Shown here: piece by piece, positions 589-25,421 of the stretch
Numbering within the stretch: the stretch's first letter is position 1
Layout of the letters: each line of letters opens with the position of its first letter
IMG/VR virus record: IMGVR_UViG_2568526722_000004
Location: 1-26,789 of that record
DNA from: a virus
Taxonomy: Duplodnaviria; Heunggongvirae; Uroviricota; Caudoviricetes
Direction: 5' to 3' (one strand)
Length of the DNA: 26,789 nucleotides
Notes under the pieces: model-generated
Told to the model about the DNA's origin: nothing
Databases searched by the model: none
Seen by the model: only the letters and a program-made list of their open reading frames with translations
Position numbers and translations under genes: made by a program

Positions 589-595
589 GGTCACC

Positions 596-1393: not shown

Positions 1394-1412
1394 ACTTCGT
1401 TTCTCCTCTTAA

Positions 1413-1775: not shown

Positions 1776-1784
1776 GACCGACCT

Positions 1785-2683: not shown

Positions 2684-2714
2684 CGTTCTGTGGTTAAAAA
2701 TTGAAAGTGTTCTG

Positions 2715-2915: not shown

Positions 2916-2918
2916 ACA

Positions 2919-2990
2919 ATATGTACCTCCGGTATACATATTACATGATTGAAATGAACCTTCAAGATACTTGTACCTTAACGGTACAAG
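2919..2990. promoter_or_regulatory. Divergent operator/promoter region between Cro-like and CI-like genes
   Basis: Two palindromes with TGTACC half-sites: AATATGTACCTCCGGTATACATATT (2919-2942) and CTTGTACCTTAACGGTACAAG (2970-2990); the same half-site recurs at the promoter after the CI-like gene. Confidence 0.5.
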
Positions 2991-3005
2991 GGTTTTAATT
3001 TCGTT

Positions 3006-3680
3006 ATGAAAACAATCCATGACATCCGGCGGTCTAACGCCAGAAAACTGAGAGATGGTGTTGGCGGGAATTCTTCCTTTGCCACTATGATTGATCGCGA
3101 GCCAACCCAGACCAGCAGGTTTATGGGAGATGGTGCTACTAAAAATATCGGTGACAGCATGGCACGACACATCGAAAAATGTTTCGACCTGCCTGTCGGA
3201 TGGCTCGATCAAGAACACCAGACAACGAACATCACAAAAAAACCTGATGTTTCAATCACTAATAAACAAATCACATTAGTCCCTGTCATATCATGGGTAC
3301 AGGCCGGAGCATGGAAAGAAGTTGGATATTCTGAGGTTGATTTGAGCACAGCAGAAACGTATCCCTGCCCTGTACCCTGTGGGGAAATGACTTATATCTT
3401 GCGGGTGATAGGTGATTCAATGATTGATGAGTACCGCCCGGGAGACATGATTTTTGTCGATCCTGAAGTACCTGCCTGCCACGGTGACGACGTTATTGCA
3501 TTGATGCACGATACAGGCGAAACCACCTTCAAAAGGTTGATAGAAGATGGGACACAGCGTTATCTCAAAGCGTTAAACCCAAACTGGCCTGAGCCTTACA
3601 TTAAGATCAACGGTAATTGCTCTATAATTGGTACAGTGATTTTCTCAGGAAAACCAAGAAGATACAAAATCAAAGCCTAA
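3006..3680 (+). CDS. CI-like phage repressor with LexA/S24 peptidase C-terminal domain
   Basis: 224-aa ORF; C-terminal ...YILRVIGDSMIDEYRPGDMIFVDPEV... has the GDSM serine motif of the S24 (LexA/CI) autopeptidase family; divergent from the Cro-like gene; followed by a terminator. Confidence 0.75.
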   Translation: MKTIHDIRRSNARKLRDGVGGNSSFATMIDREPTQTSRFMGDGATKNIGDSMARHIEKCFDLPVGWLDQEHQTTNITKKPDVSITNKQITLVPVISWVQAGAWKEVGYSEVDLSTAETYPCPVPCGEMTYILRVIGDSMIDEYRPGDMIFVDPEVPACHGDDVIALMHDTGETTFKRLIEDGTQRYLKALNPNWPEPYIKINGNCSIIGTVIFSGKPRRYKIKA

Positions 3681-3692
3681 TCAATGTTTATG

Positions 3693-3716
3693 AACCTGCT
3701 TCGGCAGGTTTTTTTA
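3693..3716 (+). terminator. Rho-independent terminator after the CI-like gene
   Basis: AACCTGC-TTCG-GCAGGTT hairpin followed by a run of T (3709-3715). Confidence 0.7.
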
Positions 3717-3719
3717 TAC

Positions 3720-3752
3720 TTGACAATGTACCTTTGAGATACATAATGTACC
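3720..3752 (+). promoter_or_regulatory. Sigma70-like promoter (pL-like) with flanking TGTACC operator half-sites
   Basis: TTGACA (3720-3725), 17-bp spacer, CATAAT (3742-3747); ATGTACC at 3726-3732 and 3746-3752 overlap the promoter elements. Confidence 0.5.
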
Positions 3753-3914
3753 CAAGCGAAACAACGAACAGGCAGGACGCCCACGAAGTAGCCGCCTGGA
3801 GCATATGAAGTCCAGGATGATTCGTTAGCAACAAAAAAGCGCCCTACAGGACGCTTAGCTCTTTAACAATCTGGTCCCCATCAACAAGTAACTGATAACT
3901 TGAGGAGATGTGAA

Positions 3915-4121
3915 ATGCACAAAACAGAACCCAAAATCGTCGCGCCTGGCTACACAGATGAGGAAATTTATGAGTGGATGACAAAGAAGCTGGCAGCTAT
4001 AAACCAGCTTCGTGAAGTGCTGTCTTATCGACAGGAAACAATAGACTCCTTAAAAAAACTGGATCAGGAAATCACGGTTTTATCACAGGATGTTACTTTA
4101 GATATTGTGCAGACAAATTAG
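3915..4121 (+). CDS. Hypothetical small protein
   Basis: 68-aa ORF from the ATG at 3915, preceded by GAGGAG; the track ORF uses an upstream TTG at 3900. Confidence 0.35.
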   Translation: MHKTEPKIVAPGYTDEEIYEWMTKKLAAINQLREVLSYRQETIDSLKKLDQEITVLSQDVTLDIVQTN

Positions 4122-4527
4122 GATCCCATTCATTTTCGTCAAAATCATCAAAGTGATGAATTTGTGATCTCCAGTCTCGATAATCTAAAAATTTCTGGGC
4201 GGTTACGCTTATTTTATCAAGTGTGAGTTCATCCTGAATTGAAAGAAGAAGTTCATCAAATTTCATCTCATTAATCTGTTTTGGCATCCAGTGATGCTTC
4301 ATCAGAATAAGGTGAACCAGAGCCTTTTTCCCATTCAACTGATTATAGGGAGTGCCGAATTTCTTCCGGTGCTCATGTAAGACAAGGTCCAAAAGAGTAA
4401 GTAATGTTGCCCTTGATTCAACTTTGCTTATTTCGACTGATGACACTACCCCACTGATTTCAATGCCCCGATACTTTCCAACATTTTCACAGTGGGATTT
4501 GTACAGCGTATAGATATTACCGGACAT
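4093..4527 (-). CDS. Hypothetical protein (AT-rich moron, opposite strand to the surrounding operon)
   Basis: 144-aa ORF with AAGGA RBS; markedly AT-rich compared with its flanks; convergent with the upstream small gene; preceded by two direct repeats. Confidence 0.5.
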   Translation of the reverse strand: MSGNIYTLYKSHCENVGKYRGIEISGVVSSVEISKVESRATLLTLLDLVLHEHRKKFGTPYNQLNGKKALVHLILMKHHWMPKQINEMKFDELLLSIQDELTLDKISVTAQKFLDYRDWRSQIHHFDDFDENEWDPNLSAQYLK

Positions 4528-4542
4528 TTCTTTTCCTTTTGC

Positions 4543-4590
4543 GTTGTTGGGGATAACCAGATTAACCGAATCCTTGTTGTTGGGGAATAA
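4543..4590. repeat. Two direct repeats GTTGTTGGGGA(A)TAAC upstream of the moron gene
   Basis: GTTGTTGGGGATAAC at 4543-4557 and GTTGTTGGGGAATAAC at 4575-4590, 16-48 bp upstream of the start codon at 4527. Confidence 0.5.
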
Positions 4591-4995
4591 CTAGGTCCAC
4601 CTCGCCTGATGTGGCTAAAAGCAGGCACATAACAGCTAAGTATTTTCAACCAGAGAGAATCCTTAGCGTTGTGGTGAATGCGGCTCAGCGCACGCGGGTT
4701 AAGGTTGAGGCTGACAGTCGACCTTCTGTGGATACCCACCCGCCTGGTGTGCAACCTTCGCCAGGCACCGGGAGGCACCCGGCACCACAACTTTATGCTG
4801 TGTGTAGTCTTGGCGGTACCAGCTTGTACCCTTGCTTCCGGCTGGTACCGTCCTTTTTACAAAACAGAGAAGAGCATCACCGGACGACGGGCTCATAACC
4901 CAATCCATCCGGGCGGCAGTCACCGCAGGTGTTCTTCTCTGTTTTGTGGAGAAACTAACCGACCTTGCAGGGTCGATATGATGAGGAGCAGCAAA

Positions 4996-5358
4996 ATGGC
5001 TAGCGAACGCAGTACTGATGTGCAGGCATTTATCGGGGAGCTGGACGGCGGCGTATTTGAAACCAAAATCGGCGCAGTTCTCAGTGAAGTCGCTTCCGGT
5101 GTGATGAACACGAAAACCAAAGGTAAGGTCTCGCTCAACCTGGAAATCGAACCGTTTGATGAGAACCGAGTGAAAATCAAACACAAACTCTCATATGTTC
5201 GCCCGACTAACCGCGGGAAAATTTCCGAAGAAGACACCACCGAAACGCCGATGTATGTCAATCGCGGTGGTCGCCTGACTATTCTGCAGGAAGACCAGGG
5301 ACAGTTACTGACTCTTGCCGGTGAACCTGACGGAAAACTCCGCGCAGCAGGTCGTTAA
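4996..5358 (+). CDS. Hypothetical prophage protein (yfdP-like position)
   Basis: 120-aa ORF from the ATG at 4996 with AGGAG RBS; the longer track ORF 4678..5358 has an implausible GC-rich, non-protein-like N-terminal part. Confidence 0.5.
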   Translation: MASERSTDVQAFIGELDGGVFETKIGAVLSEVASGVMNTKTKGKVSLNLEIEPFDENRVKIKHKLSYVRPTNRGKISEEDTTETPMYVNRGGRLTILQEDQGQLLTLAGEPDGKLRAAGR

Positions 5359-5423
5359 TATCGTTTTTAATTAACTGATTATTTATCTCATCACTGAATA
5401 TCTTTATATAGTGAGGACTTATT

Positions 5424-6248
5424 ATGTCTCAGAACTTAGACGCAACCGCAATTAATCAAATCCATGCCCTTATTTCTGCTCAGGGTGTTAATGAAATTAT
5501 CAGTAAGATTGGTGCCGATGCTGTGGCATTGCCTGAGAATTTCCGCATTCATGATCTGGAAAAATTTAATTTAAATCGCTTCCGTTTCCGTGGTGCGCTT
5601 TCCACTGCCAGCATCGATGACTTTACCCGTTATTCTAAAGATCTTGCAGATGAAGGCACCCGCTGCTTTATCGATGCTGATAATATGCGTGCCGTCAGTG
5701 TGCTTAACCTGGGTACTATTGATGAACCAGGTCACGCAGATAACACCGCCACACTCAAACTGAAAAAGACAGCACCGTTCTCTGCTCTGTTGTCTGTTAA
5801 CGGCGAGCGTAACTCCCAGAAGTCACTAGCAGAATGGATTGAAGACTGGGCCGACTATCTTGTGGGCTTTGATGCTAATGGTGACGCTATTCAGGCAACA
5901 AAAGCGGCTGCGGCTGTCCGTAAAATCACGATTGAAGCAAACCAGACCGCTGATTTTGAAGATAATGACTTCAGCGGCAAACGCTCCCTGATGGAGTCTG
6001 TCGAAGCGAAGACCAAAGACATTATGCCAGTGGCATTTGAATTTAAATGCGTTCCGTTTGAAGGTCTGAAAGAACGCCCGTTTAAATTACGCCTCAGTAT
6101 TATCACTGGCGATCGTCCTGTACTGGTTCTGCGCATTATTCAGCTGGAGGCGGTGCAGGAAGAAATGGCTAACGAATTTCGTGATCTGCTTGTTGAGAAA
6201 TTCAAGGACAGCAAAGTAGAAACCTTTATTGGTACTTTCACCGCCTGA
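5424..6248 (+). CDS. yfdQ: Prophage protein, YfdQ-like (274 aa)
   Basis: 274-aa ORF; size and gene order (274/178/120/101 aa) match the yfdQ-yfdR-yfdS-yfdT block of E. coli CPS-53/KplE1 as I recall it; symbol assigned from memory, not verified. Confidence 0.5.
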
Positions 6249-6375
6249 TTTCATTACTGCAAATGCCCCTGCGGGGGCATTTATGGAAACGTAATTTACT
6301 CAATAATCGCCGGATGGTGAGGGATTCTTTTTACCAGAATTCAGCGCGGTGCAGCGCATATACGTGGAGAACAAA

Positions 6376-6912
6376 ATGTCATTTATTAAAACTTTTTCCG
6401 GGAAGCATTTTTATTATGACAGGATAAATAAAGACGACATCGATATTAACGATATCGCGGTTTCCCTTTCAAATATCTGTCGCTTTGCCGGTCATCTTTC
6501 GCACTTCTACAGCGTCGCCCAACATGCGGTTCTTTGCAGCCAGCTGGTGCCGCAGGAATTTGCTTTTGAAGCGTTAATGCATGATGCAACAGAAGCGTAT
6601 TGCCAGGACATTCCCGCACCACTGAAACGCCTTCTTCCTGACTATAAACAAATGGAAGAAAAAATAGACGCCGTAATCCGTGAGAAATACGGGTTACCCC
6701 CAGTTATGAGTACGCCCGTGAAATATGCCGATCTCATCATGCTGGCAACCGAACGCCGCGATCTCGGACTTGATGATGGCTCTTTCTGGCCTGTATTGGA
6801 AGGTATCCCGGCAACAGAGATGTTCAAAGTGATTCCACTGGCTCCAGGCCATGCCTACGGGATGTTTATGGAACGTTTTAACGAGTTATCGGAGTTACGC
6901 AAATGCGCATGA
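6376..6912 (+). CDS. yfdR: HD-domain protein, YfdR-like 5'-deoxynucleotidase
   Basis: 178-aa protein from the ATG at 6376 with GGAGAA RBS; has H..HD-type metal-binding motifs (CRFAGH, MHDATEAY) typical of HD-domain phosphohydrolases. Confidence 0.55.
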   Translation: MSFIKTFSGKHFYYDRINKDDIDINDIAVSLSNICRFAGHLSHFYSVAQHAVLCSQLVPQEFAFEALMHDATEAYCQDIPAPLKRLLPDYKQMEEKIDAVIREKYGLPPVMSTPVKYADLIMLATERRDLGLDDGSFWPVLEGIPATEMFKVIPLAPGHAYGMFMERFNELSELRKCA

Positions 6913-7265
6913 ATGTTTTCGAAATGGAAGGGTTTCTTCGCGGGAAATGTGTACCGCGAGATCTGAAAGTGAACGAAACAAATGCTGAGTACCTGGTACG
7001 TAAATTCGATGCGCTTGAAGCTAAATGTGCAGCACAGGAAAACAAAGTAATACCAGTGTCAACTGAACTGCCACCAGCAAATGAAAGTGTTTTGTTATTC
7101 GATGCTAACGGAGAAGGCTGGCTAATTGGCTGGCGTTCTCTCTGGTACACCTGGGGACAAAAAGAAACCGGAGAATGGCAGTGGACATTTCAGGTCGGGG
7201 ACCTTGAAAACGTCAATATCACTCACTGGGCAGTAATGCCAAAAGCACCGGAGGCTGGAGCATAA
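6903..7265 (+). CDS. yfdS: Prophage protein, YfdS-like
   Basis: 120-aa ORF overlapping the yfdR-like stop; size and order match CPS-53 yfdS from memory. Confidence 0.45.
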   Translation: MRMNVFEMEGFLRGKCVPRDLKVNETNAEYLVRKFDALEAKCAAQENKVIPVSTELPPANESVLLFDANGEGWLIGWRSLWYTWGQKETGEWQWTFQVGDLENVNITHWAVMPKAPEAGA

Positions 7266-7570
7266 TGACCACTTTTACCGACAAAGAACTGATTAAAGAA
7301 ATTAAAGAGCGTATCAGCAGCCTTGACGTGCGAGACGATATTGAGCGCCGTGCTTATGAAATCGCACTCCTATCTCTGGAAGTAGAACCAGATGAACGCG
7401 AAGCTTATGAATTATTCATGGAAAAGCGTTTCGGTGACTTAGTAGATCGTCGGAGAGCAAAAAACGGCGATAACGAATACATGGCATGGGATATGACTCT
7501 CGGTTGGATCGTCTGGCAGCAACGAGCTGGTATCCATTTTTCAACAATGTCACAGCAAGAGGTGAAATAA
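7265..7570 (+). CDS. yfdT: Prophage protein, YfdT-like
   Basis: 101-aa ORF with stop/start overlap on both sides; size and order match CPS-53 yfdT from memory. Confidence 0.45.
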   Translation: MTTFTDKELIKEIKERISSLDVRDDIERRAYEIALLSLEVEPDEREAYELFMEKRFGDLVDRRRAKNGDNEYMAWDMTLGWIVWQQRAGIHFSTMSQQEVK

Positions 7571-7920
7571 TGGAGCCATACAGCCTCACACTCGATGAGG
7601 CCTGTCATTTTCTCAAGATATCCAGACCGACTGCCATTAACTGGATACGCACAGGGCGTCTTCAGGCAACACGCAAAGATCCCACTAAGAATAAATCTCC
7701 TTACCTCACAACACGACAAGCCTGCATTGCGGCTCTTCAGTCTCCGCTGCATACTGTCCAGGTGAGCGCGGGTGATGGCATAACAGAGGAAAGAAAATGT
7801 CACTCTTCCGCAGAGGTGAAATATGGTACGCCAGTTTCACATTGCCGAACGGTAAAAGATTTAAACAGTCTCTTGGAACAAAGGACAAAAGGCAGGCGAC
7901 AGAACTCCATGACAAGCTAA
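7570..7920 (+). CDS. Excisionase-like HTH protein (Xis/AlpA-type)
   Basis: ATG at 7570 with AGGTGA RBS; N-terminal [31 protein letters not shown] is an excisionase-type HTH; sits directly upstream of the integrase; the frame stays open to 7920, overlapping int by 124 nt, so the 3' end is uncertain. Confidence 0.5.
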
Positions 7921-8960
7921 AGGCTGAAGCATGGCGGGTCAGCAAACTTGGTGAAATACCTGATATAACGTTCGAGGAAGCGTGTGTCAGGTGGCTTGAA
8001 GAGAAAGCACATAAAAAATCACTGGACGATGACAAAAGCCGGATCGGATTCTGGCTTCAACATTTCGCAGGAATGCAACTAAGAGACATTACTGAATCAA
8101 AAATTTATTCAGCAATGCAGAAAATGACGAACCGGCGTCATGAGGAAAACTGGAAACTCAGGGCAGAAGCATGCAGAAAAAAAGGGAAACCTGTTCCAGA
8201 ATACACGCCAAAACCAGCGTCCGTTGCAACGAAGGCTACGCATCTTTCATTTATAAAGGCCCTACTAAGAGCCGCAGAGCGTGAATGGAAAATGCTGGAT
8301 AAGGCACCAATTATTAAAGTGCCCCAACCAAAGAATAAACGGATCCGCTGGCTGGAGCCCCATGAAGCACAAAGGCTGATTGATGAATGTCCGGAGCCAT
8401 TAAAGTCTGTTGTTGAATTTGCACTGGCAACAGGCCTAAGACGCTCGAACATCATCAACCTTGAATGGCAACAAATAGATATGCAGCGCCGGGTGGCATG
8501 GATAAACCCGGAAGAGAGTAAATCAAACCGCGCAATTGGCGTTGCGCTGAATGATACTGCATGTCGCGTATTGAAAAAACAAATCGGGAATCATCACCGT
8601 TGGGTATTTGTGTACAAGGAAAGCTGTACCAAACCAGACGGAACGAAAGCGCCAACAGTCAGGAAGATGCGGTATGACGCAAACACAGCCTGGAAAGCGG
8701 CGCTGAGACGGACTGGTATTGATGATTTCAGATTTCACGACTTGAGACACACCTGGGCAAGTTGGCTGGTTCAAGCCGGAGTCCCGTTGTCAGTGTTACA
8801 GGAAATGGGAGGCTGGGAGTCTATCGAAATGGTTCGTCGATATGCTCACCTTGCACCTAATCACCTTACCGAACACGCACGGCAAATAGACTCGATCCTA
8901 AACCCATCGGTCCCAAATTTGTCCCAGTCAAAAAATAAGGAAGGTACTAATGATGTGTAA
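7797..8960 (+). CDS. Tyrosine recombinase, lambdoid phage integrase
   Basis: 387-aa ORF; N-terminus [14 protein letters not shown]... (arm-binding type); C-terminal catalytic region ...[40 protein letters not shown] with the conserved HxxR and Tyr motif; ends 13 nt before a copy of the thrW 3' end. Confidence 0.85.
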
Positions 8961-8972
8961 CTTATTGATTTA

Positions 8973-8990
8973 AATGGTGCGATAATAGGA
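8973..8990. repeat. att core repeat (copy of the thrW 3' end): attR of element A and attL of element B
   Basis: AATGGTGCGATAATAGGA matches 25344-25362 AATGGTGCCGATAATAGGA (18/19, one C missing), same orientation. Confidence 0.7.
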
Positions 8991-9049
8991 ACAAATCAAA
9001 CCACATAACCAATTGATTTCTATTATATTTTTATGTTTTAGTTTTCAAC

Positions 9050-9070
9050 ATACCCCCAAAAGTACCCCCA
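9050..9070. repeat. 21-bp repeat ATACCCCCAAAAGTACCCCCA (candidate integrase arm-type site), copy 1
   Basis: Exact 21-bp direct repeat of 25211-25231; contains an internal TACCCCCA duplication; lies about 60 bp inside the left att core. Confidence 0.6.
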
Positions 9071-9307: not shown

Positions 9308-10288
9308 TCATGCTAAAGCTCGAGCTACATTTTCTTTGATCGCAATAGCACAAGGAGTTTTGAACTTTTCTTTGCAACAGTGTAATAGCGTATTAATATT
9401 CAAATCAGTTTCAAGAATATTTTTTAGCTCACTCTTTCTTTCCGAGATTAAGGTTGGTTTATCTTTGCATTGTTTGACTATTAAGGCAGTTTCATTAATA
9501 TTCAATTGCTCTATCAATGATTTTATGACAGGCATGACAACTCTATCAGCTAAAAAATGACCATTGATATATTGATAGGCGTTATCTTCTCTCAATCCTT
9601 TATCATATAACTGCTCATAGAATTTATCAGCATCGTATTCATCTTGAATAAGGTTATCAAGTTTTTCTTCAATAACCGCTTTAGATTGCTGCATACTTTC
9701 AAATACAGCATTTTTGATAACAAATTGGTTCGTTAATCGTGGCACAGAAGGAGCAATCGCTTCATGGAAAACTGAGTCATCAAGTCTAACTTGATGCTGT
9801 TTAAGCAATAAAAATTTCTTCAGCACGGGGTAGATCAACCGTGAATACTCTGTAATGTATGCTGTAAAATCGAATTTAATTTCAGTAGCGATCTTTATTT
9901 GAGAAAGACAATACTCAAGGACTTCATGGTGTAACTCGATGCTCTCTTTTGAATATACAAATGTTTGAAAAATAAACTTGTTACTGCAAATTATCTCTGA
10001 GTCTGTACTGTTTTTAGGGCATAAATAATCAAAATCACTATCCATTGCAAATATGGCATATCGATTTGCTCGGCTCATGAATTTTTTTAATACTGGTTTC
10101 CCTTTTGTTCCTTTATTGGTAGGGTTACAAATATCAAAACGTATATCATTATCTTTATCGTTTAATAAGCCTTCCCAGAAAGAAATGTCTTTTAGACCTT
10201 CAACAAAGACAAAGCCATTGTGTCCAGCCATAATACAATATACCTGAAGATATTCTTCGCTAAAATTAATATCCTCAAACTCAGTCAT
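9308..10288 (-). CDS. ariB: AriB-like DUF4435/Toprim protein (PARIS defense system effector)
   Basis: 326-aa ORF overlapping the upstream ATPase gene by 8 nt; N-terminal Toprim-like features (MAGHNGFVFVEGLKD..., acidic AIFAMDSDFDY); low GC; the pairing with an ABC-type ATPase is the PARIS (AriA/AriB) architecture. Confidence 0.6.
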   Translation of the reverse strand: MTEFEDINFSEEYLQVYCIMAGHNGFVFVEGLKDISFWEGLLNDKDNDIRFDICNPTNKGTKGKPVLKKFMSRANRYAIFAMDSDFDYLCPKNSTDSEIICSNKFIFQTFVYSKESIELHHEVLEYCLSQIKIATEIKFDFTAYITEYSRLIYPVLKKFLLLKQHQVRLDDSVFHEAIAPSVPRLTNQFVIKNAVFESMQQSKAVIEEKLDNLIQDEYDADKFYEQLYDKGLREDNAYQYINGHFLADRVVMPVIKSLIEQLNINETALIVKQCKDKPTLISERKSELKNILETDLNINTLLHCCKEKFKTPCAIAIKENVARALA

Positions 10289-11276
10289 GAGAAGATTCCT
10301 TTGAAATATTTTTTATATCTACGAAAGAATCCATCCAGCCTTTCATTAATATTGCAGGACTATGAGTAACAATAATTAACTGACAATTATCGTTAATTGA
10401 TTTGATGGTGCTTATTAATCTTTCTTGCCACGTAAGGTGCAAGGATATTTCTGGCTCATCCATCAACAAGACAGATTCATCCAATGAAGTATTAGCTGTT
10501 TTAATCAGAATATATAACAACTGACGTTCACCTGATGAAAGAAGATTATACCTAATATCTTCACCAGAATCACTCATCTTAATAGAAATGTTACCATTAC
10601 TAAAAGAAACAACTTTGTTACATTCAGCAAATAAATTATTTATAGCTGATTCCAACTTATCCTTTATGAGAATACCTTTAGACTCACTTACTTTGAAAGT
10701 ATTCTTTAACCTTTCTAATTCACCAGCAATTTCCATATCAAGAATTGTGGTGCGCTCACCATCACTTTTTTTGAATTCATAGATGGAATTGGCACTCATA
10801 TTGATAGTTGATATTAACTCAACATTTATTCGCTTAGTGTTTTTAATATTATCACTTACGCTAACAGTTCCCATCCCGAACTCTTTAATTTCAGTGTCTT
10901 CTTTTTTCGATTCAAGCAACTCAATAAGTTCATTTAACTCCTTTATTTCCTTACCCTTTGATTTACCTTTAATACTGTTTTTCTTAAGGTTATTAAGTAG
11001 GTTTAGAAGCTGGACAGAGTCAATTTCGCGAAAATTAACTTTGTGAGTAATTGTGCCTCCATTGGCCAATGTTATTTGAGCCAACGCAGCATTACTTAAA
11101 CTTTCATTTAATTCTTGTTTTAAGAGGGCAAAAACACTTTGAATTATCGTGCTCTTACCTGAGCCATTTTTACCCACTAAAACATTCACATCTTTTAAAC
11201 TCCAATCAATGTCCTTCCGTTTAAAAAGACCTTTGATTGCTATATTTTTGATTATCGTCGCCACTCTCGTATCCAT
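10281..11276 (-). CDS. ariA: AriA-like ABC/AAA_15-21 ATPase (PARIS defense system sensor)
   Basis: 331-aa ORF; Walker A GKNGSGKST, signature-like LSSGERQLL, Walker B LLMDEPE, H-loop IIVTHS; low GC. Confidence 0.65.
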   Translation of the reverse strand: MDTRVATIIKNIAIKGLFKRKDIDWSLKDVNVLVGKNGSGKSTIIQSVFALLKQELNESLSNAALAQITLANGGTITHKVNFREIDSVQLLNLLNNLKKNSIKGKSKGKEIKELNELIELLESKKEDTEIKEFGMGTVSVSDNIKNTKRINVELISTINMSANSIYEFKKSDGERTTILDMEIAGELERLKNTFKVSESKGILIKDKLESAINNLFAECNKVVSFSNGNISIKMSDSGEDIRYNLLSSGERQLLYILIKTANTSLDESVLLMDEPEISLHLTWQERLISTIKSINDNCQLIIVTHSPAILMKGWMDSFVDIKNISKESSHD

Positions 11277-14929: not shown

Positions 14930-15175
14930 TCACCATTGAGCTGATGTAATCCCATCCCGGCATGTGCCCGGCTGATGGTTTCGCGCATCTCCCCCGAAAT
15001 TATCCTGCCTTGCTGGTGGGCGTGCTGCCTTGTGGATACATTCCGCGCGACGTTTTGCCGCCTGTTCCCGTGCCTTGTCATCATTCGCCAGCATGATGAC
15101 CTCAGCCCACCGCGCCGCCGCTCTCCGGTACAGACCACGCGCTTCCAGTGCTTCCGCTTTGCTGTCGTGAATCAT
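14930..15175 (-). CDS. PerC-family transcriptional regulator-like protein
   Basis: 81-aa ORF with ATGA overlap to the upstream gene; MIHDSKAEALEARGLYRRAAARWAEVIM... resembles PerC/Pch-type proteins. Confidence 0.5.
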   Translation of the reverse strand: MIHDSKAEALEARGLYRRAAARWAEVIMLANDDKAREQAAKRRAECIHKAARPPARQDNFGGDARNHQPGTCRDGITSAQW

Positions 15176-15684
15176 GCGCCTATTGTCTCCTTTGCTGCCC
15201 GGCGCTGGCGTTTGCGCTTCTCATTCAGCGCCACCAGCCGCGTTTCTGCGTCCTGTTGTTCCTGTGGTGTCACCTCGCCGCACGGCTGGCCTTTCAGGTC
15301 GTAGCGTACCCCACCAGCCATTAAGGCGCGGTAATAGTGCGGACACTGCGCATAAGATGCCAGCGTCGCACGCAATGCCCCTGGCCCGAATGCCAGCCCC
15401 CTGACGGCGAGATCCTGCATCAGGTCGTCGAATATCCCCACCTTAAGCGGCTTCGGTGCTTCCCGGCTGAATAAGTCAGGCCACAACTCAGTGAGGCGGT
15501 TAACGCGCCTGCGGTTTTTGCGCTGGCGTTTGGTCATATGCCGCCACGGTGTCGCCCCTGTGGGCTTTTGCTGCGCTTTCTGGTTACCGGGCATCACTTT
15601 ATGCGCCGATGTGGTTTTATGATCTTACCCAGCAATAGTGGACACGCGGCTAAGTGAGTAAACTCTCAGTCAGAGGTGACTCAC

Positions 15685-15984
15685 ATGACAAAAACAGTAT
15701 CAACCAGTAAAAAACCCCGTAAACAGCATTCGCCTGAATTTCGCAGTGAAGCCCTGAAGCTTGCTGAACGCATCGGTGTTACTGCCGCAGCCCGTGAACT
15801 CAGCCTGTATGAATCACAACTCTACAACTGGCGCAGTAAACAGCAAAATCAGCAGACGTCTTCTGAACGTGAACTGGAGATGTCTACCGAGATTGCACGT
15901 CTCAAACGCCAGCTGGCAGAACGGGATGAAGAGCTGGCTATCCTCCAAAAGGCCGCGACATACTTCGCGAAGCGCCTGAAATGA
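15685..15984 (+). CDS. insE: IS3 transposase OrfA (InsE)
   Basis: 99-aa product [32 protein letters not shown]... with AGGTGA RBS; matches IS3 InsE from memory. Confidence 0.9.
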
Positions 15985-16847
15985 AGTATGTCTTTATTGA
16001 AAAACATCAGGCTGAGTTCAGCATCAAAGCAATGTGCCGCGTGCTCCGGGTGGCCCGCAGCGGCTGGTATACGTGGTGTCAGCGGCGGACAAGGATAAGC
16101 ACGCGTCAGCAGTTCCGCCAACACTGCGACAGCGTTGTCCTCGCGGCTTTTACCCGGTCAAAACAGCGTTACGGTGCCCCACGCCTGACGGATGAACTGC
16201 GTGCTCAGGGTTACCCCTTTAACGTAAAAACCGTGGCGGCAAGCCTGCGCCGTCAGGGACTGAGGGCAAAGGCCTCCCGGAAGTTCAGCCCGGTCAGCTA
16301 CCGCGCACACGGCCTGCCTGTGTCAGAAAATCTGTTGGAGCAGGATTTTTACGCCAGTGGCCCGAACCAGAAGTGGGCAGGAGACATCACGTACTTACGT
16401 ACAGATGAAGGCTGGCTGTATCTGGCAGTGGTCATTGACCTGTGGTCACGTGCCGTTATTGGCTGGTCAATGTCGCCACGCATGACGGCGCAACTGGCCT
16501 GCGATGCCCTGCAGATGGCGCTGTGGCGGCGTAAGAGGCCCCGGAACGTTATCGTTCACACGGACCGTGGAGGCCAGTACTGTTCAGCAGATTATCAGGC
16601 GCAACTGAAGCGGCATAATCTGCGTGGAAGTATGAGCGCAAAAGGTTGCTGCTACGATAATGCCTGCGTGGAAAGCTTCTTTCATTCGCTGAAAGTGGAA
16701 TGTATCCATGGAGAACACTTTATCAGCCGGGAAATAATGCGGGCAACGGTGTTTAATTATATCGAATGTGATTACAATCGGTGGCGGCGGCACAGTTGGT
16801 GTGGCGGCCTCAGTCCGGAACAATTTGAAAACAAGAACCTCGCTTAG
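15981..16847 (+). CDS. insF: IS3 transposase OrfB (InsF), DDE catalytic domain; expressed as OrfAB by -1 frameshift
   Basis: 288-aa ORF overlapping the orfA stop (ATGA); DDE-type integrase core (…HTDRGGQY…, …[11 protein letters not shown]…). Confidence 0.9.
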
Positions 16848-16982
16848 GCCTGTGTCCATATTACGTGGGTAGGATCATTATCCTGCTCCTGCGCCGCCTG
16901 CGTCGTTTTCTGCGGCGTGCCGTAAATGCCTTTCGGTTTTCTGTTAATGGTCAGCTTAGTCATGCTTTGCCCCATCGTTACA

Positions 16983-17316
16983 ACTGTCTACCAACTGTCT
17001 ACCGATATAATTGTTTGATTTATTTAATGTTATTAATACATAACAAAAAAACAATCTGCAAACTGTCTACCAACTCTCTACAGTATTAATACATTGATAA
17101 TTAATGACTTTTACTAAATGGTAGACAGTGTAGATAGTTAAAAGAAAAATTTTAAAAATGAACCCATAACTATCTATTTTTAGATACCCCCGTGGTTTAG
17201 AAATATAAAATAAACTGTCCACCTCTCTACCACATTAAAAATACCTATATAATTCAAAACATTAATTAGTAGATGGTTGGTAGAGGGTTAAGTGTATCTG
17301 TCTACCAACCGTCTAC
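16983..17316. repeat. Iteron-like repeat array in AT-rich DNA downstream of the primase gene (candidate replication origin)
   Basis: CTGTCTACCAACTGTCTACC (16983-17002), CTGTCTACCAACTCTCTAC (17063-17081), inverted GGTAGACAGTGTAGATAG (~17120), CTGTCCACCTCTCTACCAC (~17215), inverted GGTTGGTAGAGGG (~17276), CTGTCTACCAACCGTCTAC (17298-17316). Confidence 0.6.
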
Positions 17317-17344
17317 TTTTAAGTTTCAACTTATAAATTTCGTA

Positions 17345-19150
17345 TCATGTTCTGTCGTTAATGCCTGCCGTTGCTGGTAACCATCCATCAGCATCTTTAT
17401 CTAACAGAACATTTGTGATCGTTCGCCCTTTATCTGGACCTTTAGTGCATTTAGCCCGCTTGTACTCCTTTCCGTACTCAGCCATTGCCCCTGGCATATC
17501 TGTACCAAAGCGTGTCAGTGATACCGGTTTTCCCAGACCATGCGCAGACATATAAGCCAAATAAGCATGATACAGATATCGCCTCGGACTAAATGGCACT
17601 ATTTCTGCATTACCTACTATCATTCCCTCACATTTAACCAACGACATCAGATAACCGCAGAAGTCCACCAGCGAATCACCTTCACGCTTTATCAACAGTG
17701 CTTCTTCTGATTTTTGCTGCTCATAAAGTAGTCTTTTCGCTTCGTCCTGGTCGGCAAATCGTGTAAGCAAATGGCGAATCACTACTGCCAGTTCCCCTTC
17801 TATCTTTTTCGCCAGCATCGGATCGCGTTCGTTCTCTGGTACAACCTCAGAGAAATTAAATATTACTCGTCGACGCGAGATCCCCCCACTACGGTCGCTG
17901 AATGACATGGCATAATTGTTTACTGCCAGCACTACCGCAGGAACGCGCGTGGAATAGGGCGCTTTGTGTTTCGGATCGATAGCCACCTTGTCACCGCCTG
18001 TAATGGCCTTAATCCCAGCACCATCACCTGCGTAGCGGGTCATGTCAGGCATGATAATCAGAGAATATCCCACCACTAACGCTCGTTCCCTCGCGTCTTC
18101 CAGCGCCTTCATGCTCGCCGATACTGTATTGGCCTTACCCGCCAGCATGGTACAAATCTCCGCCATCACACTTTTACCGCTTCCGCCCGGCCCCGTTACC
18201 TCAAGGAATAACTGCCAGTCGTACCGGTTCGCCAGTACCATGAATAATGCCGCCAGTACGCGATCCGCTTTACGAGCATTATCCGCCACCGAACGACGCA
18301 ACCACTTCCAGAAATTCGGCGCATGTGTTGCCAGCGTTTCCCCCTCTTCTGGCGGGCTGAACGGTAATTCACTGGCATTTAACAACCAGTCATTTTTGTT
18401 GTGTTCCCGAAAATTTCCTGTCCTGATATCAAAAACACCGTTACTGAACCCAATAAGATTTCTGTCCGCTCCCCCCATAACAGGTAGACTCAATTTCATT
18501 GTCTCTACGGCAAATTTAATGGCGTTTTGCGAATAACTAATTTCGGCATCAATAAAAATCTTCGCCATAGACCGCTGGAGTTCCTTATCAGATACAGGCT
18601 CCCAAACAATTCCGTTGTAATGGTGAACTACATCAGAATCATCATTTATCGCCAGTGCTCCTCCATAATGTTCAAGTAACACTTCCCCTCTCTGGCTGGC
18701 TCCCATCTGATTTAATGCAGGCTTGGGTAGACCACTATTTTTTGTAGCTAATTTCATCACTGAAACTTCCCCGTGCTCAGCCTGTTCGCGGATCCGTTGC
18801 AGGTAGTCGCGCCAGTTCTCCGGTTCCTGGTCGGTGATACCTTTGTATAATTTCGCCTCCTGTACGCCAGCCAGCGCCAGCTTTTCAGCGATAGTATTGA
18901 TCTGGATTGGCTCTATCTCCCCCGCGATATAGACACGCGCAAAACGGCGTTTCTCGTCAATAATGCGGATATTCGCCAGGTCTGCCAGTTGCTTTGGCCC
19001 CAGGTAAACAGGAGGCACGTTATCGCCGTGTTTTCGTCCTTCACTTTCAATCCAGTGTTGAGCATGGGCGTAAGCATCCATCCCGGCAAAAATGATTACC
19101 TCAGTGAATTTATCCTTCGGCTGATATTTTAGACTCGGTGCGTTTTTCAC
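17345..19150 (-). CDS. Replication primase/helicase-like protein (P4 alpha / D5-type SF3 NTPase family)
   Basis: 601-aa ORF; Walker A in ...LEVTGPGGSGKSVMAE...; last gene of a tightly coupled operon; followed by the iteron array. Confidence 0.7.
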   Translation of the reverse strand: MKNAPSLKYQPKDKFTEVIIFAGMDAYAHAQHWIESEGRKHGDNVPPVYLGPKQLADLANIRIIDEKRRFARVYIAGEIEPIQINTIAEKLALAGVQEAKLYKGITDQEPENWRDYLQRIREQAEHGEVSVMKLATKNSGLPKPALNQMGASQRGEVLLEHYGGALAINDDSDVVHHYNGIVWEPVSDKELQRSMAKIFIDAEISYSQNAIKFAVETMKLSLPVMGGADRNLIGFSNGVFDIRTGNFREHNKNDWLLNASELPFSPPEEGETLATHAPNFWKWLRRSVADNARKADRVLAALFMVLANRYDWQLFLEVTGPGGSGKSVMAEICTMLAGKANTVSASMKALEDARERALVVGYSLIIMPDMTRYAGDGAGIKAITGGDKVAIDPKHKAPYSTRVPAVVLAVNNYAMSFSDRSGGISRRRVIFNFSEVVPENERDPMLAKKIEGELAVVIRHLLTRFADQDEAKRLLYEQQKSEEALLIKREGDSLVDFCGYLMSLVKCEGMIVGNAEIVPFSPRRYLYHAYLAYMSAHGLGKPVSLTRFGTDMPGAMAEYGKEYKRAKCTKGPDKGRTITNVLLDKDADGWLPATAGINDRT

Positions 19151-20226: not shown

Positions 20227-20443
20227 GGTGCACCTCCTGCACATCAGCCATGATAATTTTTCCGGCCTTATCCAGTGCCTGATCGGCTTTTAGCTGCACA
20301 AATGCTAAATAATGGGAGATGCATTCTGATTCTCTGGCTGCGTGTTTATGCGCCACACCAGCGATAGCAGAAATCTCAATAAGTGAATCCATCAGCGTTT
20401 TGATAGCGTCTACCGCTGCATCAGGCCATGTTGCATTACACAT
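20219..20443 (-). CDS. Hypothetical protein (replication operon)
   Basis: 74-aa ORF; start overlaps the upstream stop by 8 nt. Confidence 0.4.
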   Translation of the reverse strand: MCNATWPDAAVDAIKTLMDSLIEISAIAGVAHKHAARESECISHYLAFVQLKADQALDKAGKIIMADVQEVHHA

Positions 20444-20639
20444 GTTCCACCTCCTGGCGAATACGGGCGGCGAATACCATCACGCAGCCATCAGGAGATT
20501 GCTGGCGTGCTTCCTGTTCGCTGGTGGCCTCGATGTGAATTACGCGCGGTTGTGCCGTGCTCAGGGCGATAAAACGCCAGATGTATTTATTCAGGTTGTG
20601 CGAGTCCCGCCCTTGCGGGTGTGTGGTATGATTTCTCAT
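20436..20639 (-). CDS. Hypothetical protein, first gene of the replication operon
   Basis: 67-aa product from the ATG at 20639 with GAGGT RBS, just downstream of the operator region; it is the plausible C-terminal segment of the 435-aa track ORF. Confidence 0.4.
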   Translation of the reverse strand: MRNHTTHPQGRDSHNLNKYIWRFIALSTAQPRVIHIEATSEQEARQQSPDGCVMVFAARIRQEVEHV

Positions 20640-20735
20640 AGCTACCTCGATACTCTTGCTATCGTTGGTGGTTAGACGCCCTGCATGTGTGCCACCACTG
20701 CGGGGCGTTGTCGTTTCTGCACCTTGCATCAACAA

Positions 20736-20789
20736 GGTGTTGAACACCAATTTAAGCCCAGGTGTTAAACACGTCAAGTGTTGAACACT
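20736..20789. promoter_or_regulatory. Three 13-bp palindromic operators (GTGTT-N-AACAC) in a divergent promoter region
   Basis: GGTGTTGAACACC (20736-20748, perfect), GGTGTTAAACACG (20761-20773), AGTGTTGAACACT (20777-20789, perfect); between the RHH gene (20839, +) and the replication operon (20639, -). Confidence 0.6.
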
Positions 20790-20838
20790 TATTTTTTTTC
20801 CTGCATACTGCATTTGTTTTTTGTAAGGGGTACACAAC

Positions 20839-21018
20839 ATGGCGACAAAAGCAGTAAACGCAAAATCACAAACAGTTGCGGCAAGGGTTCCGCATGAAGT
20901 TATGAACAATGTTGAGGCGGTAAAAATGCCTGGTGAAAGTACAGGGCAGTTTGTAACAGCAGCATTAAAGCGAGAAGTTGAATACCGCCAGCGCCGCAAG
21001 GCCAAAGAACAGGAGTAA
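20839..21018 (+). CDS. Ribbon-helix-helix (Arc/CopG-like) small DNA-binding protein, candidate repressor
   Basis: 59-aa ORF (below the track's length cutoff) read by hand: MATKAVNAKSQTVAARVPHEVMNNVEAVKMPGESTGQFVTAALKREVEYRQRRKAKEQE; beta-strand/helix/helix pattern; AGGGG RBS-like upstream; only gene on the opposite strand in this block. Confidence 0.5.
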   Translation: MATKAVNAKSQTVAARVPHEVMNNVEAVKMPGESTGQFVTAALKREVEYRQRRKAKEQE

Positions 21019-21329
21019 CCATCACCAGCGCCGTGGTGTGAGGAACTACGGTGCATCGTTTTACAGGGCTGCGCCATGACCAACAAAAAATCAACCAATA
21101 CACCATCACCGGCACGGAAAAGACAGCGCAGAAAGATAGCGTACGAGCATGAGTCAAACAGATTCGCGCCCTGTGCGTTTATCCTTGAGAAATTCCTTAA
21201 AGAGTACAGGCGCACAAAAATGGGGTCGCATACCTGGAAAACATCGCGGCATGGCAATGTTAAAGAGCAGGAATAGCCCACCAGCAAGCCAGCATATTCA
21301 CCATAATGACCCTCAGTTAAACATAGAGT

Positions 21330-21743
21330 CATTGGTGCAAAGCTGACACATTGCCCACCAGCCGCAAATCTGGCATTGTTGGCGATGCGTTCAAGTATGT
21401 AGCTTTCCCACTGGCGGCCCTCTGCGGTCGCCTTTGTTTTATCCAGAACGAAATCAGACATCAGATTGATCAGCACCTGGCGACCTGACAAAATCGCATC
21501 AGTCGCGCCACCAGCAAAATTTTTTGCTTTCCGGACAGTGTGACCAACGACATTTTGCAGCAAAATATTCTGCATTTCTGGCGTGCTGTAGTAACGGTGA
21601 TCAGCGCCTTCACTCTGTGCGACCACAACGCTATAATCTGCCTCGTAGACAGTAAGCAATATGGCGCAGTAGGCTATTCGTTCACAAAGGCGCTCCGGCA
21701 ACGGGGCGCTTTCTCTTTTTGTAACGGTCAGAGCGTTACACAT
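21330..21743 (-). CDS. Hypothetical protein co-transcribed with the antirepressor; 3' end undefined
   Basis: ATG at 21743 overlaps the antirepressor stop by 8 nt; the first ~140 codons look protein-like, but the frame has no stop until 20436 and runs through the + strand RHH gene and operators, so the true end is unknown (21330 is arbitrary). Confidence 0.3.
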
Positions 21744-22536
21744 GGCTGTTTTCCTCCATGCGACGGGCTAACCAACGCTGCGAAAGACGAATTAATTCAG
21801 CCTTCCGCTGGTGGTAGTCCTGGCCTAACTCAATCAGCGTGATATTGCTCTGCTCAAGGTAAGAAAGGTGCTCAAGCTGCAACGTGCTCATGTGGTCGCG
21901 TGGTTCGCCTGTAATGCCGTTCGCCAGTGCCCACTGTTTTGCAGTCATGCCACCCAGCACGATACGCGCCAGCATGTTCGCTTCCGTGGTGTAGTGGTGC
22001 TGGAGTGTGTTTTTACCCAGTTCAGCCCGGTACGCCTCCAGCGCGGCACACATTGGCTTAAAGTAGCTGGCAACTGTGATACGGGCTTTCAGTTCCCGGC
22101 GTAACGCTGCGGAACGAACAGGCGCAACCTTGTGTAGCTCCTCCTCGCATTTGATAAAGTACTGGCGAACGGCGCGGCCCTGTTCGGTACGTTCGACCAT
22201 CGCCAGTTCTTTCGCCATGTTCACGGTGATGATGTACTCAAGAGCTGTTTGCTGGCGAGATTTTGCGCTCACCGGATCGGGTCGGCTCAAATATTCAACA
22301 ACCTCATAATCCACGCCTTCCGTGAAGCCGTATTCTTCAATGCGCCCCTTGATCCACGAACGGAAAACGCGCCCTACACCTAACGCCTTATGTAACGCTC
22401 TGGCACTAACAATATTGGTTTCACTCCCGCCAATAACGCCGGAAATAATCGGGATAATATCGCCGAGATTTTGCAGATTCTGGTTTTCAGGCCGAACGAA
22501 GCCCCGCCCCTGTACGGGCATTTTTGGAAATTTCAT
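21736..22536 (-). CDS. Phage antirepressor (Ant/Rha-type)
   Basis: 266-aa ORF; segment ...ALEYIITVNMAKELAMVERTEQGRAVRQYFIKCEEEL... is characteristic of phage antirepressor/Rha-type proteins. Confidence 0.55.
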   Translation of the reverse strand: MKFPKMPVQGRGFVRPENQNLQNLGDIIPIISGVIGGSETNIVSARALHKALGVGRVFRSWIKGRIEEYGFTEGVDYEVVEYLSRPDPVSAKSRQQTALEYIITVNMAKELAMVERTEQGRAVRQYFIKCEEELHKVAPVRSAALRRELKARITVASYFKPMCAALEAYRAELGKNTLQHHYTTEANMLARIVLGGMTAKQWALANGITGEPRDHMSTLQLEHLSYLEQSNITLIELGQDYHQRKAELIRLSQRWLARRMEENSHV

Positions 22537-22613: not shown

Positions 22614-22811
22614 TCAGGTAGCTGTTCCGCGTGATTCCGCAATACGCTGATTAATCCACTCGTCAATTTCACTCTCAACGAAAGCAATAGCTCGCGAGCC
22701 AATTTTAACTGATGCAGGAAATTTACCTTGCCCCATAAGGCGATAAATCCATGCCTTGCTATATCCAGTTCTACGCTGAACTTCTGTTAAACGAATAAGC
22801 GTATTTGACAT
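22614..22811 (-). CDS. alpA: AlpA-family phage transcriptional regulator
   Basis: 65-aa ORF: MSNTLIRLTEVQRRTGYSKAWIYRLMGQGKFPASVKIGSRAIAFVESEIDEWINQR, a typical AlpA HTH; sits downstream of a P4-type integrase. Confidence 0.8.
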   Translation of the reverse strand: MSNTLIRLTEVQRRTGYSKAWIYRLMGQGKFPASVKIGSRAIAFVESEIDEWINQRIAESRGTAT

Positions 22812-23842: not shown

Positions 23843-23964
23843 ACCTCAGCGTCCTCTACTGTAGTGGCTGTACCAGTCCGTCGAGGTGTACGGATTTTCG
23901 GGAGCGACCCTAGACACAGCCTTTTCTTTCGTCGCTCAAAGTCTACTACTGTATACTCAACCAG

Positions 23965-25179
23965 TCACCCGCATTTTCCGAACTCACCATGCACCACATT
24001 TCCGCCATGCTCGAGCGAATCCATATAATCAGCGTACCACTGAAGCATTTCCCGCCGCCCATCCAGATATTGCGCATGGTTGTATGTGCCACGAATTGAG
24101 TTTTTATCGACGTGCGCAAGCTGTGTCTCTATCCACGCGGTGTTATAGCCCTGCTCATGCAAAATGGTGCTCATAGTGTGCCGGAAGCCATGACCAGTAA
24201 CCTTTCCGTTATAGCCGATGCGTTTAAATACTTGGTTTATGCTAGCCTCGCTCATTGTTTTCCTTGGATCATTACGGCCGGGAAACATAAGCGGATAATT
24301 GCCAGTTAGTTCTTTAATCTGCCCAATAAGCGAAAGAGCCTGCTCAGACAAAGGCACTACATGAGGGCGACGCATTTTCATCCGTGAAGCAGGTATCTCC
24401 CAGATAGCCTTGTTGAGATCGATTTCATCCCATAATGCACCGCGCAGTTCGCCAGTCCGCAAACCGGTGATAATCAGTAAACGAGCCGCCATAACAACCA
24501 ATGCACTTCCTGAGTAACTGGACAATGCCTTGAAAAAATCAGGTAATTCTTTGGCTGTGAGGAAAGGATAATGATTAGATTCATGACCTTGCATCGCGCT
24601 GGTGAGATCCGGTGCAGGGTTATACTCAGCACGTCCAGTGACAATTGCATAGCGGAAAACTTCCCCACATCGCTGCCTCACTTTTTTGGCTTTTTCGGTA
24701 GCACCGCGCCCCTCGATGCGCCGCAGCACATTCAGCAGTTCAAGTGGTTTGATTTCGGCGATTGGTTTTTTGCCAATGTAAGGGAACACATCTTTGTTGA
24801 AGGCTTCGAGGATGTCTGAAGCATAACCAGCAGACCATTTTTTTAATTTGCTGCTGTGCCACTCAAGGGCAATATCTTTGAAGGTGTTGTTTAACTGCGT
24901 TTCCCGGGCAATCTTTTCCTCTCGTTTCGCTTCCATCGGATCGATACCCCCAGCGATACCCCTTTTAGCTTCTTCACGTTTTGCACGAGCATCAGCCAAG
25001 GTAACTTCAGGATACACACCTAGTGCTAACAGCTTCTCTTTACCAGCTACACGATACTTGAAGCGCCAATATTTTCCTCCACTAGGTTTTACCAAGAGAT
25101 ACAGACCACCACCATCAGCCAGCTTGTAAGCCTTCTCTTTTGGCTTGGCAGTGTCTATTTGACGGGCATTGAGTTTCAC
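23965..25179 (-). CDS. Tyrosine recombinase, P4-type integrase
   Basis: 404-aa ORF next to and co-oriented with thrW; N-terminal MKLNARQIDTAKPKEKAYKLADGGGLYLLVKPSGGKYWRFKYR... (P4-integrase N-terminal domain type) and C-terminal ...GHGFRHTMSTILHEQGYNTAWIETQLAH...Y catalytic region. Confidence 0.9.
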   Translation of the reverse strand: MKLNARQIDTAKPKEKAYKLADGGGLYLLVKPSGGKYWRFKYRVAGKEKLLALGVYPEVTLADARAKREEAKRGIAGGIDPMEAKREEKIARETQLNNTFKDIALEWHSSKLKKWSAGYASDILEAFNKDVFPYIGKKPIAEIKPLELLNVLRRIEGRGATEKAKKVRQRCGEVFRYAIVTGRAEYNPAPDLTSAMQGHESNHYPFLTAKELPDFFKALSSYSGSALVVMAARLLIITGLRTGELRGALWDEIDLNKAIWEIPASRMKMRRPHVVPLSEQALSLIGQIKELTGNYPLMFPGRNDPRKTMSEASINQVFKRIGYNGKVTGHGFRHTMSTILHEQGYNTAWIETQLAHVDKNSIRGTYNHAQYLDGRREMLQWYADYMDSLEHGGNVVHGEFGKCG

Positions 25180-25210: not shown

Positions 25211-25231
25211 ATACCCCCAAAAGTACCCCCA
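25211..25231. repeat. 21-bp repeat ATACCCCCAAAAGTACCCCCA (candidate integrase arm-type site), copy 2
   Basis: Exact direct repeat of 9050-9070; lies between the integrase start and the tRNA. Confidence 0.6.
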
Positions 25232-25343: not shown

Positions 25344-25362
25344 AATGGTGCCGATAATAGGA
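25344..25362. repeat. att core at the thrW 3' end (attL of element A)
   Basis: AATGGTGCCGATAATAGGA overlaps the last 17 nt of the tRNA gene; imperfect direct repeat at 8973-8990. Confidence 0.7.
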
Positions 25363-25421
25363 GTCGAACCTACGACCTTCGCATTACGAATGCGCTGCTC
25401 TACCAACTGAGCTATATCGGC
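25346..25421 (-). tRNA. thrW: tRNA-Thr (anticodon CGU)
   Basis: Reverse complement is GCCGATATAGCTCAGTTGGTAGAGCAGCGCATTCGTAATGCGAAGGTCGTAGGTTCGACTCCTATTATCGGCACCA: 76 nt, cloverleaf-compatible, anticodon loop TTCGTAA, encoded CCA; sits immediately downstream of proA as thrW does in E. coli. Confidence 0.95.

Follow-up and report, generated by a model that had tools for sequence, protein, structure and literature searches.

FinO (F-like plasmids), FopA and PcnR (IncI plasmids) are proteins of ~170-190 residues, encoded on mobile elements, in which the FinO domain follows a basic disordered N-terminal extension and leads into a long C-terminal helix. FinO acts together with FinP and FopA together with Inc; ProQ of Escherichia coli, which also has a FinO domain, is a chromosomal global RNA-binding protein that has in addition a linker and a C-terminal Tudor-like domain. 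In RocC, Y87 and R97 form a Tyr/Arg pocket for the 3'-terminal nucleotide of terminator hairpins (PMC9674577), and in characterized family members the extensions outside the FinO core carry duplexing and strand exchange and are generally needed for chaperone and regulatory activity, while cores without extensions usually bind RNA yet do not regulate (PMC9977716). The present study concerns a stretch of 26,789 nucleotides from a virus record of the Caudoviricetes (IMG/VR record IMGVR_UViG_2568526722_000004, positions 1 to 26,789; hereafter the window), in which a complete copy of the insertion sequence (IS) IS3 interrupts a gene of the ProQ/FinO family that is carried, to judge from the surrounding genes, by a satellite resembling the phage-inducible chromosomal islands (PICIs). 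The insertion has probably left the gene without expression or function.

The layout of the satellite protein, reconstructed without the insertion, is closest to that of the plasmid proteins, which it resembles in size, in the order of its parts, in the conserved Tyr/Arg 3'-end pocket and in its location on a mobile element, here adjoining replication functions. It shares only ~29% identity with FinO, and its host is a chromosomal PICI-like satellite, whereas theirs are plasmids. Its nearest plasmid or phage relatives reach at most ~45% identity, over the domain alone, and the satellite subfamily was essentially not found in sequenced phages or true plasmids. Compared with E. coli ProQ, which its FinO domain matches along residues 62-167 (E 4e-11), it lacks the linker and the Tudor-like domain and has a 55-residue N-terminal extension with a conserved motif of its own, and its gene is accessory, being present in ~6% of complete E. 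coli genomes. The inserted element has the same length, ends, orfA/orfB, frameshift site, DDE domain and 3-bp duplication as the IS3 of E. coli (IS3 family, IS3 group), with no notable difference, and its insertion site alone is particular. The intact gene and IS3 are both already annotated in RefSeq, and the locus is no new kind of system. Literature searches returned no functional study of the satellite ProQ/FinO subfamily and, for a characterized PICI or satellite FinO-domain protein, gave annotation-level mentions only, as in a PICI paper (PMC13612085) and a review (PMC9977716).

The IS3 copy and the empty site

The interrupted locus comprises the following features, in window coordinates; ORF denotes open reading frame and aa amino acids.

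15620-16877, plus strand: complete IS3, 1258 bp, its transposase genes antiparallel to the interrupted gene
15685-15984, plus strand: IS3 orfA, 99 aa, HTH_Tnp_1 match
15981-16847, plus strand: IS3 orfB, 288 aa, with HTH_21, the rve DDE integrase core (E 5e-28) and rve_2
15617-15619, no strand: left copy of the TTA target duplication, abutting the left end of IS3
16878-16880, no strand: right copy of the TTA target duplication, abutting the right end of IS3
16844-16963, minus strand: 5' fragment of the ProQ/FinO-family gene; native codons 1-28 occupy 16963-16880 and include MTKLTINRKPKG
15172-15618, minus strand: 3' fragment of the ProQ/FinO-family gene, codons 29-176 and the stop, with the whole FinO domain (residues ~55-170)

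Removal in silico of IS3 and one TTA fused the two minus-strand fragments in frame into a single 176-aa ORF. The reconstructed 1154-bp locus gave a single ungapped alignment at 99.9% with many other E. coli chromosomes, where the annotation gives a 176-aa "ProQ/FINO family protein" (WP_001723124.1) and, after it, a PerC-family gene, and the reconstructed 531-nt coding sequence (CDS) was identical over 531/531 nt (100.0%) to uninterrupted annotated genes in at least 12 genomes. TTA is single-copy in these uninterrupted alleles and, because an empty site with one TTA is present in other genomes, the TTA duplication is a true IS3 target duplication and not a chance repeat. On the coding strand the target reads TAA, made up of the last base of GAT (codon 28) and the opening two bases of AAA (codon 29), and the insertion point lies between these two codons.

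The element itself begins with TGATCTTACC and ends with GGTAGGATCA; its termini are TG...CA, and the terminal inverted repeats, when aligned, are imperfect. The two transposase frames overlap, an A-AAA-G -1 slip site lies at 15947-15951, and RefSeq copies of IS3 carry the annotation "programmed frameshift". Against three RefSeq-annotated copies (transposase WP_085947771.1) the sole difference is at 15819 and is synonymous. The element is IS3 itself, with every defining structural feature in place, and since its encoded proteins are identical to the widespread WP_085947771.1, the copy would be expected to be transposition-competent. At >=99% identity IS3 occurs in more than 4000 E. coli records, and matching places number a median of 4 per E. 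coli genome.

A first-pass annotation of this DNA had described an intact 1258-bp IS3 at 15620-16877 between TTA direct repeats, whose excision restored a minus-strand ORF of ~176 aa broken after codon 28, and had proposed a search for uninterrupted homologs. All of this was borne out by the ends, the slip site and the near-identity to RefSeq copies, by the excision and by the empty-site alleles, the uninterrupted homologs being found in other E. coli at the CDS identity given above.

The interrupted gene and the effect of the insertion

The reconstructed protein matched Pfam ProQ/FINO (PF04352) with 81.7 bits (E 4.6e-23; curated cut-off 27 bits) over residues 64-168 and profile positions 5-108 of 109, and by sequence it also matched the solved structures of the ProQ N-terminal domain (5nb9, E 4e-11), FinO (1dvo, E 1.4e-10), NMB1681 and RocC. 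In the AlphaFold model of a 95%-identical homolog (P0002), the predicted local distance difference test (pLDDT) score is ~90 at residues 55-170, with residues 1-53 disordered; the model has helices at 58-73, 90-101, 107-118, 121-129 and 146-175 and strands at 132-134 and 140-143, and its best 26 Foldseek matches in the PDB were all FinO-domain structures, at probability 1.00. Y123 and R133 align with ProQ Y70 and R80, the equivalents of RocC Y87 and R97, and are invariant in an alignment of 30 homologs, and the equivalents of ProQ K35 and R58 are likewise kept, as K87 and R111. By sequence, by predicted fold and by its 3'-end pocket, the interrupted gene is a bona fide member of the ProQ/FinO family, with RNA binding as its predicted function, and the FinO-like RNA-binding domain that had been proposed for it on first reading agrees with the Pfam match, the structure matches and the model.

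The region upstream of the domain is also conserved among homologs. The N-terminal motif MTxLTINRKPKG (MTKLTINRKPKG) and the D28-K29 pair are retained at identities as low as 55%, T5 and K9 show no variation in the homolog alignment, and M1, L4, I6, R8, D28 and K29 are conserved at >=90%; residues 37-63 form a basic, Trp-containing linker. The possibility that the N-terminal motif docks on the FinO domain was considered and is unsupported, the AlphaFold model showing residues 1-53 as disordered. In the Enterobacteriaceae the homolog family comprises 241 clusters at E <=1e-5, some of them with hundreds to thousands of members.

In the reading that we favor, one transposition of IS3 into TTA at the codon 28/29 boundary duplicated the 3-bp target and parted the native promoter, the ribosome-binding site and the first 28 codons, with their conserved basic motif, from the FinO domain. 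The frame of the 5' fragment continues for 11 codons into the right end of IS3 and then meets a stop, and the upstream piece would accordingly end as a 39-aa peptide. The downstream piece, in which the first in-frame ATG (15594, Met37) opens a 140-aa remnant, would need transcription through ~1.26 kb of untranslated antisense IS3 and then translation from a start codon before which no Shine-Dalgarno sequence was seen. An in-frame TAA at 15627-15625 blocks translational read-in from IS3, and a consensus scan revealed no outward minus-strand promoter-like site at the left end of the element. Polarity on the downstream genes would be expected, and the remaining island (integrase, AlpA, primase, origin and the phage anti-restriction-induced system, PARIS) is left intact. 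Because the promoter and start are separated from the domain, the N-terminus is conserved and FinO cores alone usually do not regulate, we consider the allele likely to be null or strongly hypomorphic, with a probability of about 85%.

Several observations weigh against so complete a loss. The 140-aa remnant retains the entire FinO domain together with the basic linker of residues 37-63, and the 53 N-terminal residues are disordered in the AlphaFold model, so that their loss need not destabilize the domain. No minus-strand terminator-like site was predicted inside IS3, which makes read-through from the native promoter possible, and the consensus promoter scan is crude enough that a weak outward promoter could be missed.

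Gene callers list a 140-aa ProQ-domain remnant ORF in other assemblies, and in exact-protein look-ups this ATG-start remnant was the only product on record, a GTG-start 141-aa remnant and IS-fusion peptides of 43 aa and 39 aa having no match.

Immediately downstream of the 3' fragment, where the first-pass annotation had placed a PerC-like gene, is the following feature.

14930-15175, minus strand: PerC-family gene, its ATG overlapping the ProQ stop (ATGA), with an AAGGAGA ribosome-binding site of its own

An extra G in the G-run at 14991-14995 (+1 frameshift) leaves this gene with 81 aa versus 95 aa; the run is GGGGG in the window versus GGGG in a metagenome copy (L007), and the C-terminus is shifted. 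The same extra G occurs in islands with an intact ProQ gene, where the prokaryotic genome annotation pipeline (PGAP) marks the PerC gene as "frameshifted", and the state of the run could represent a pseudogene, a homopolymer sequencing error or phase variation. In E. coli 2017-02-2CC (NZ_AP027764.1), which carries the same island type with ProQ intact, an independent IS3 lies in the neighboring PerC-family gene; the hit to this genome, with its 100% query coverage, was rejected as an instance of the same insertion, as it is the IS3 in perC and results from joined BLAST pieces.

The points against complete loss could be taken to mean that the locus was rewired, with IS3 read-through or read-out yielding a Met37-start FinO-domain protein, and the products of downstream genes, in an altered but active form of RNA binding. 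The 140-aa ORF does contain the full domain with its invariant Y123/R133 pocket, no minus-strand terminator is predicted within IS3, and perC has its own strong ribosome-binding site. The missing outward promoter-like site, the missing Shine-Dalgarno at ATG 15594 and the stop at 15627-15625 nevertheless stand in the way of such expression, and ~1.3 kb of untranslated antisense RNA upstream would invite Rho-dependent polarity. Moreover, the lost N-terminal motif is conserved, FinO cores lacking extensions usually bind but do not regulate (PMC9977716), and perC was frameshifted beforehand, so that read-out from IS3 into it would matter little. Rewiring is therefore improbable in our estimation. 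The first-pass annotation had held that an RNA chaperone-like function was lost or rewired; with neither an outward promoter nor a ribosome-binding site found for the remnant, loss is the best reading and rewiring is unsupported.

Age, distribution and alternative histories

The ProQ-like gene was found in 310 (~6%) of the 5426 complete E. coli genomes that were surveyed at megablast level, and it is uninterrupted in 308 of the 310; strain Res13-Lact-PEB20-37-A (NZ_CP062853) is one that has the intact allele. The insertion itself recurs in a scaffold of GCA_000492275.1, which matches the window at 100% identity along 12.4 kb, the whole IS3 included, and the junction between the IS3 left end and ProQ is present in Logan assembly SRR850816, in GCA_036612275.1 and in two gut-metagenome contigs. 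It is also present in the complete genome MB06173 (NZ_CM129884.1), which has two inverted IS3 copies with the segment 13332-15619 inverted between them and has lost the AriA N-terminus, the segment 10869-13331 and the segment 16878-17494, which in the window holds the ProQ 5' end, the origin and the C-terminal part of the primase. The island of this strain is thus in a state of IS3-driven decay. Exact scans recovered neither junction from the metagenome contigs of the Joint Genome Institute (JGI), and the representative genomes of GTDB, scanned for the left junction, did not contain it either.

The insertion is evolutionarily young and rare. Its youth follows from the perfect duplication and from flanks identical to the empty-site alleles, and since the junction is common to several assemblies, it marks a small lineage and is not a private event. 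The first-pass description of the event as recent stands to that extent, but it does not extend to a single strain, given the shared junction and the later rearrangement in MB06173.

Other IS copies lie close to the gene in some islands: in four complete genomes, an IS1 is located ~20 bp upstream of the ProQ ATG, between the iterons and the gene. Recurrent IS targeting of the ProQ gene as a general pattern was rejected, 308 of the 310 genomes being uninterrupted.

A different history would make the inactivation a selected one, in which loss of the island ProQ/FinO protein or of the operon behind it favors the host or a resident prophage, IS hits are kept and the island becomes domesticated for its PARIS cargo. 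The persistence of the same junction in several assemblies and metagenome contigs would fit such a history, as would the further IS3-driven loss of the origin, primase C-terminus and AriA N-terminus in MB06173 and the independent nearby events of IS1 upstream of ProQ (four genomes) and IS3 in perC (2017-02-2CC). The pattern of 308 uninterrupted genes among 310, however, argues for maintenance and not loss, the carriers are near-identical and so represent one event, the junction was not found in JGI metagenomes or GTDB representatives, and neutral hitch-hiking fits the data equally, all of which makes selection for the insertion very unlikely. That an assembler misplaced an IS3 copy at this locus, as might be feared of a multicopy element prone to mis-joins (median 4 matching places per genome), can be dismissed, since the three target bases, which empty alleles have only once, are perfectly duplicated at the two junctions, and the left junction recurs independently in the complete MB06173 genome as well as in at least 4 further assemblies or contigs from metagenomes.

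The satellite island and its candidate RNAs

The island is ~16 kb long with IS3 included and lies beside tRNA-Thr. Its remaining features, from the integration site inward, are as follows.

25346-25421: tRNA-Thr (thrW), island integration site
23965-25179, minus strand: integrase
23853-23920, minus strand: int-alpA RNA motif, Rfam RF02996, 45.5 bits versus a gathering score of 35.8
between the int-alpA motif and AlpA, minus strand: 267-aa uncharacterized protein
22614-22811, minus strand: AlpA, E 2.4e-19
21736-22536, minus strand: AntA-family protein
between AntA and the primase, minus strand: Icd-like protein and small ORFs, then a DUF4222 protein
17345-19150, minus strand: primase/helicase (D5_N, DUF5906, Pox_D5), with the origin and the ProQ gene directly downstream
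16982-17333, no strand: AT-rich iteron region with ~10 copies of the 11-mer AACTGTCTACC in both orientations
between the PerC-family gene and PARIS, minus strand: several ORFs of unknown function
10281-11276, minus strand: PARIS AriA (AAA_21/AAA_15 ATPase), PADLOC E 2.6e-43
9308-10288, minus strand: PARIS AriB (DUF4435), E 3.6e-22

From its gene content, the island is a PICI-like phage satellite with the architecture of the EcCICFT073 type: it has an integrase, AlpA, a primase/origin module, a size in the range of ~10-16 kb and a specific integration site, and no phage structural-gene domains were detected among the island ORFs scanned, in keeping with a satellite free of morphogenesis and lysis genes. 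With EcCICFT073-type PICIs it shares the order int, alpA, conserved non-coding stretch, YlcI/Icd-like gene, small ORFs and DUF4222, which continues with a P4-type primase, the origin, accessory genes (SSB, PerC, ProQ) and cargo. The CFT073 island has SSB and PerC, no ProQ gene and a capsid gene, whereas the island described here carries PARIS (AriA/AriB) as cargo. Among more distant relatives, too, ProQ comes after a primase of the D5_N or DUF927 type, an SSB gene often precedes it, and PerC precedes or follows. In the window, copies of AACTGTCTACC lie on both sides of an AT-rich core, in the interval from the stop of the primase gene to the start of ProQ; the region 16982-17333 is presumed to be the island replication origin, of the typical iteron type, and the native ProQ promoter must lie inside it. 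The primase and iteron origin found there agree with the first-pass placement of the gene next to the island replication module.

Other parts of the window were noted in passing. Its left third (1-9070) is a lambdoid-type prophage early region in tandem with the satellite island, with genes for KilA-N, RusA, CII-like, S24 CI-like repressor and DUF2303 proteins and for an integrase (7797-8960). The 21-bp sequence ATACCCCCAAAAGTACCCCCA is present as a direct repeat, at 9050-9070 and again at 25211-25231, and its copies may mark shared attachment (att) cores that bound the island. A 435-aa ORF of odd composition and without domain hits (20436-21743, minus strand) covers the Icd-like gene together with the non-coding DNA upstream of that gene; the ORF is probably spurious, since in RefSeq relatives only its last ~134 codons are annotated (as Icd-like), although one gene caller reports the full ORF.

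The int-alpA motif is a structured RNA of obscure function, typical of such islands, and here it lies just downstream of the integrase gene in a copy without the U-run of the consensus tail. It and tRNA-Thr were the only matches in an Rfam scan of the island at E up to 1, which thus gave int-alpA alone as regards a partner antisense RNA for the ProQ-like protein and none of the P1/P4-type C4/CI antisense RNA that was sought because the island has Icd-like and AntA proteins. A non-coding stretch of ~460 bp between antA/alpA and the Icd-like gene (21277-21760) contains two conserved blocks, at 21343-21442 and 21665-21720, which are kept in 833 complete E. coli genomes, including the CFT073 PICI, far more than carry the ProQ gene; they may represent an AlpA-dependent promoter/leader or a regulatory RNA. 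A promoter-like site at 21609-21637 (plus strand, 10/12) is followed by a strong hairpin and U-tail at 21687-21712, a unit that could give an antisense RNA of ~77 nt (predicted fold -25.1 kcal/mol, z -2.45); alternatively, the hairpin could be the antA terminator.

PICI-like satellites of enterobacteria encode FinO-domain proteins of ~175 aa just behind their primase and origin. By analogy with the plasmid systems, each of these might be a dedicated RNA chaperone for an antisense or leader RNA that is encoded by the island, bears a terminator and sets satellite replication or induction, a proposal that we regard as tentative and rather doubtful. Speculative candidates for the ligand would be the promoter-plus-terminator unit (21609-21722, plus strand) and the two conserved blocks of the non-coding stretch that separates alpA/antA from icd.

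As an event, the insertion is an ordinary gene disruption, IS3 hits in accessory genes being routine, and its value as a resource is modest: the satellite ProQ/FinO subfamily is common, conserved and located beside a replication module, with variants in thousands of assemblies. The lineage nonetheless offers the gene in a cleanly disrupted natural form, from which precise excision restores an allele identical to those of other strains, and with it an entry point to the role of the protein in the satellite. Were these proteins dedicated chaperones, the IS3 allele would be a natural knock-out, and its comparison with the 100%-identical intact allele would reveal their function.

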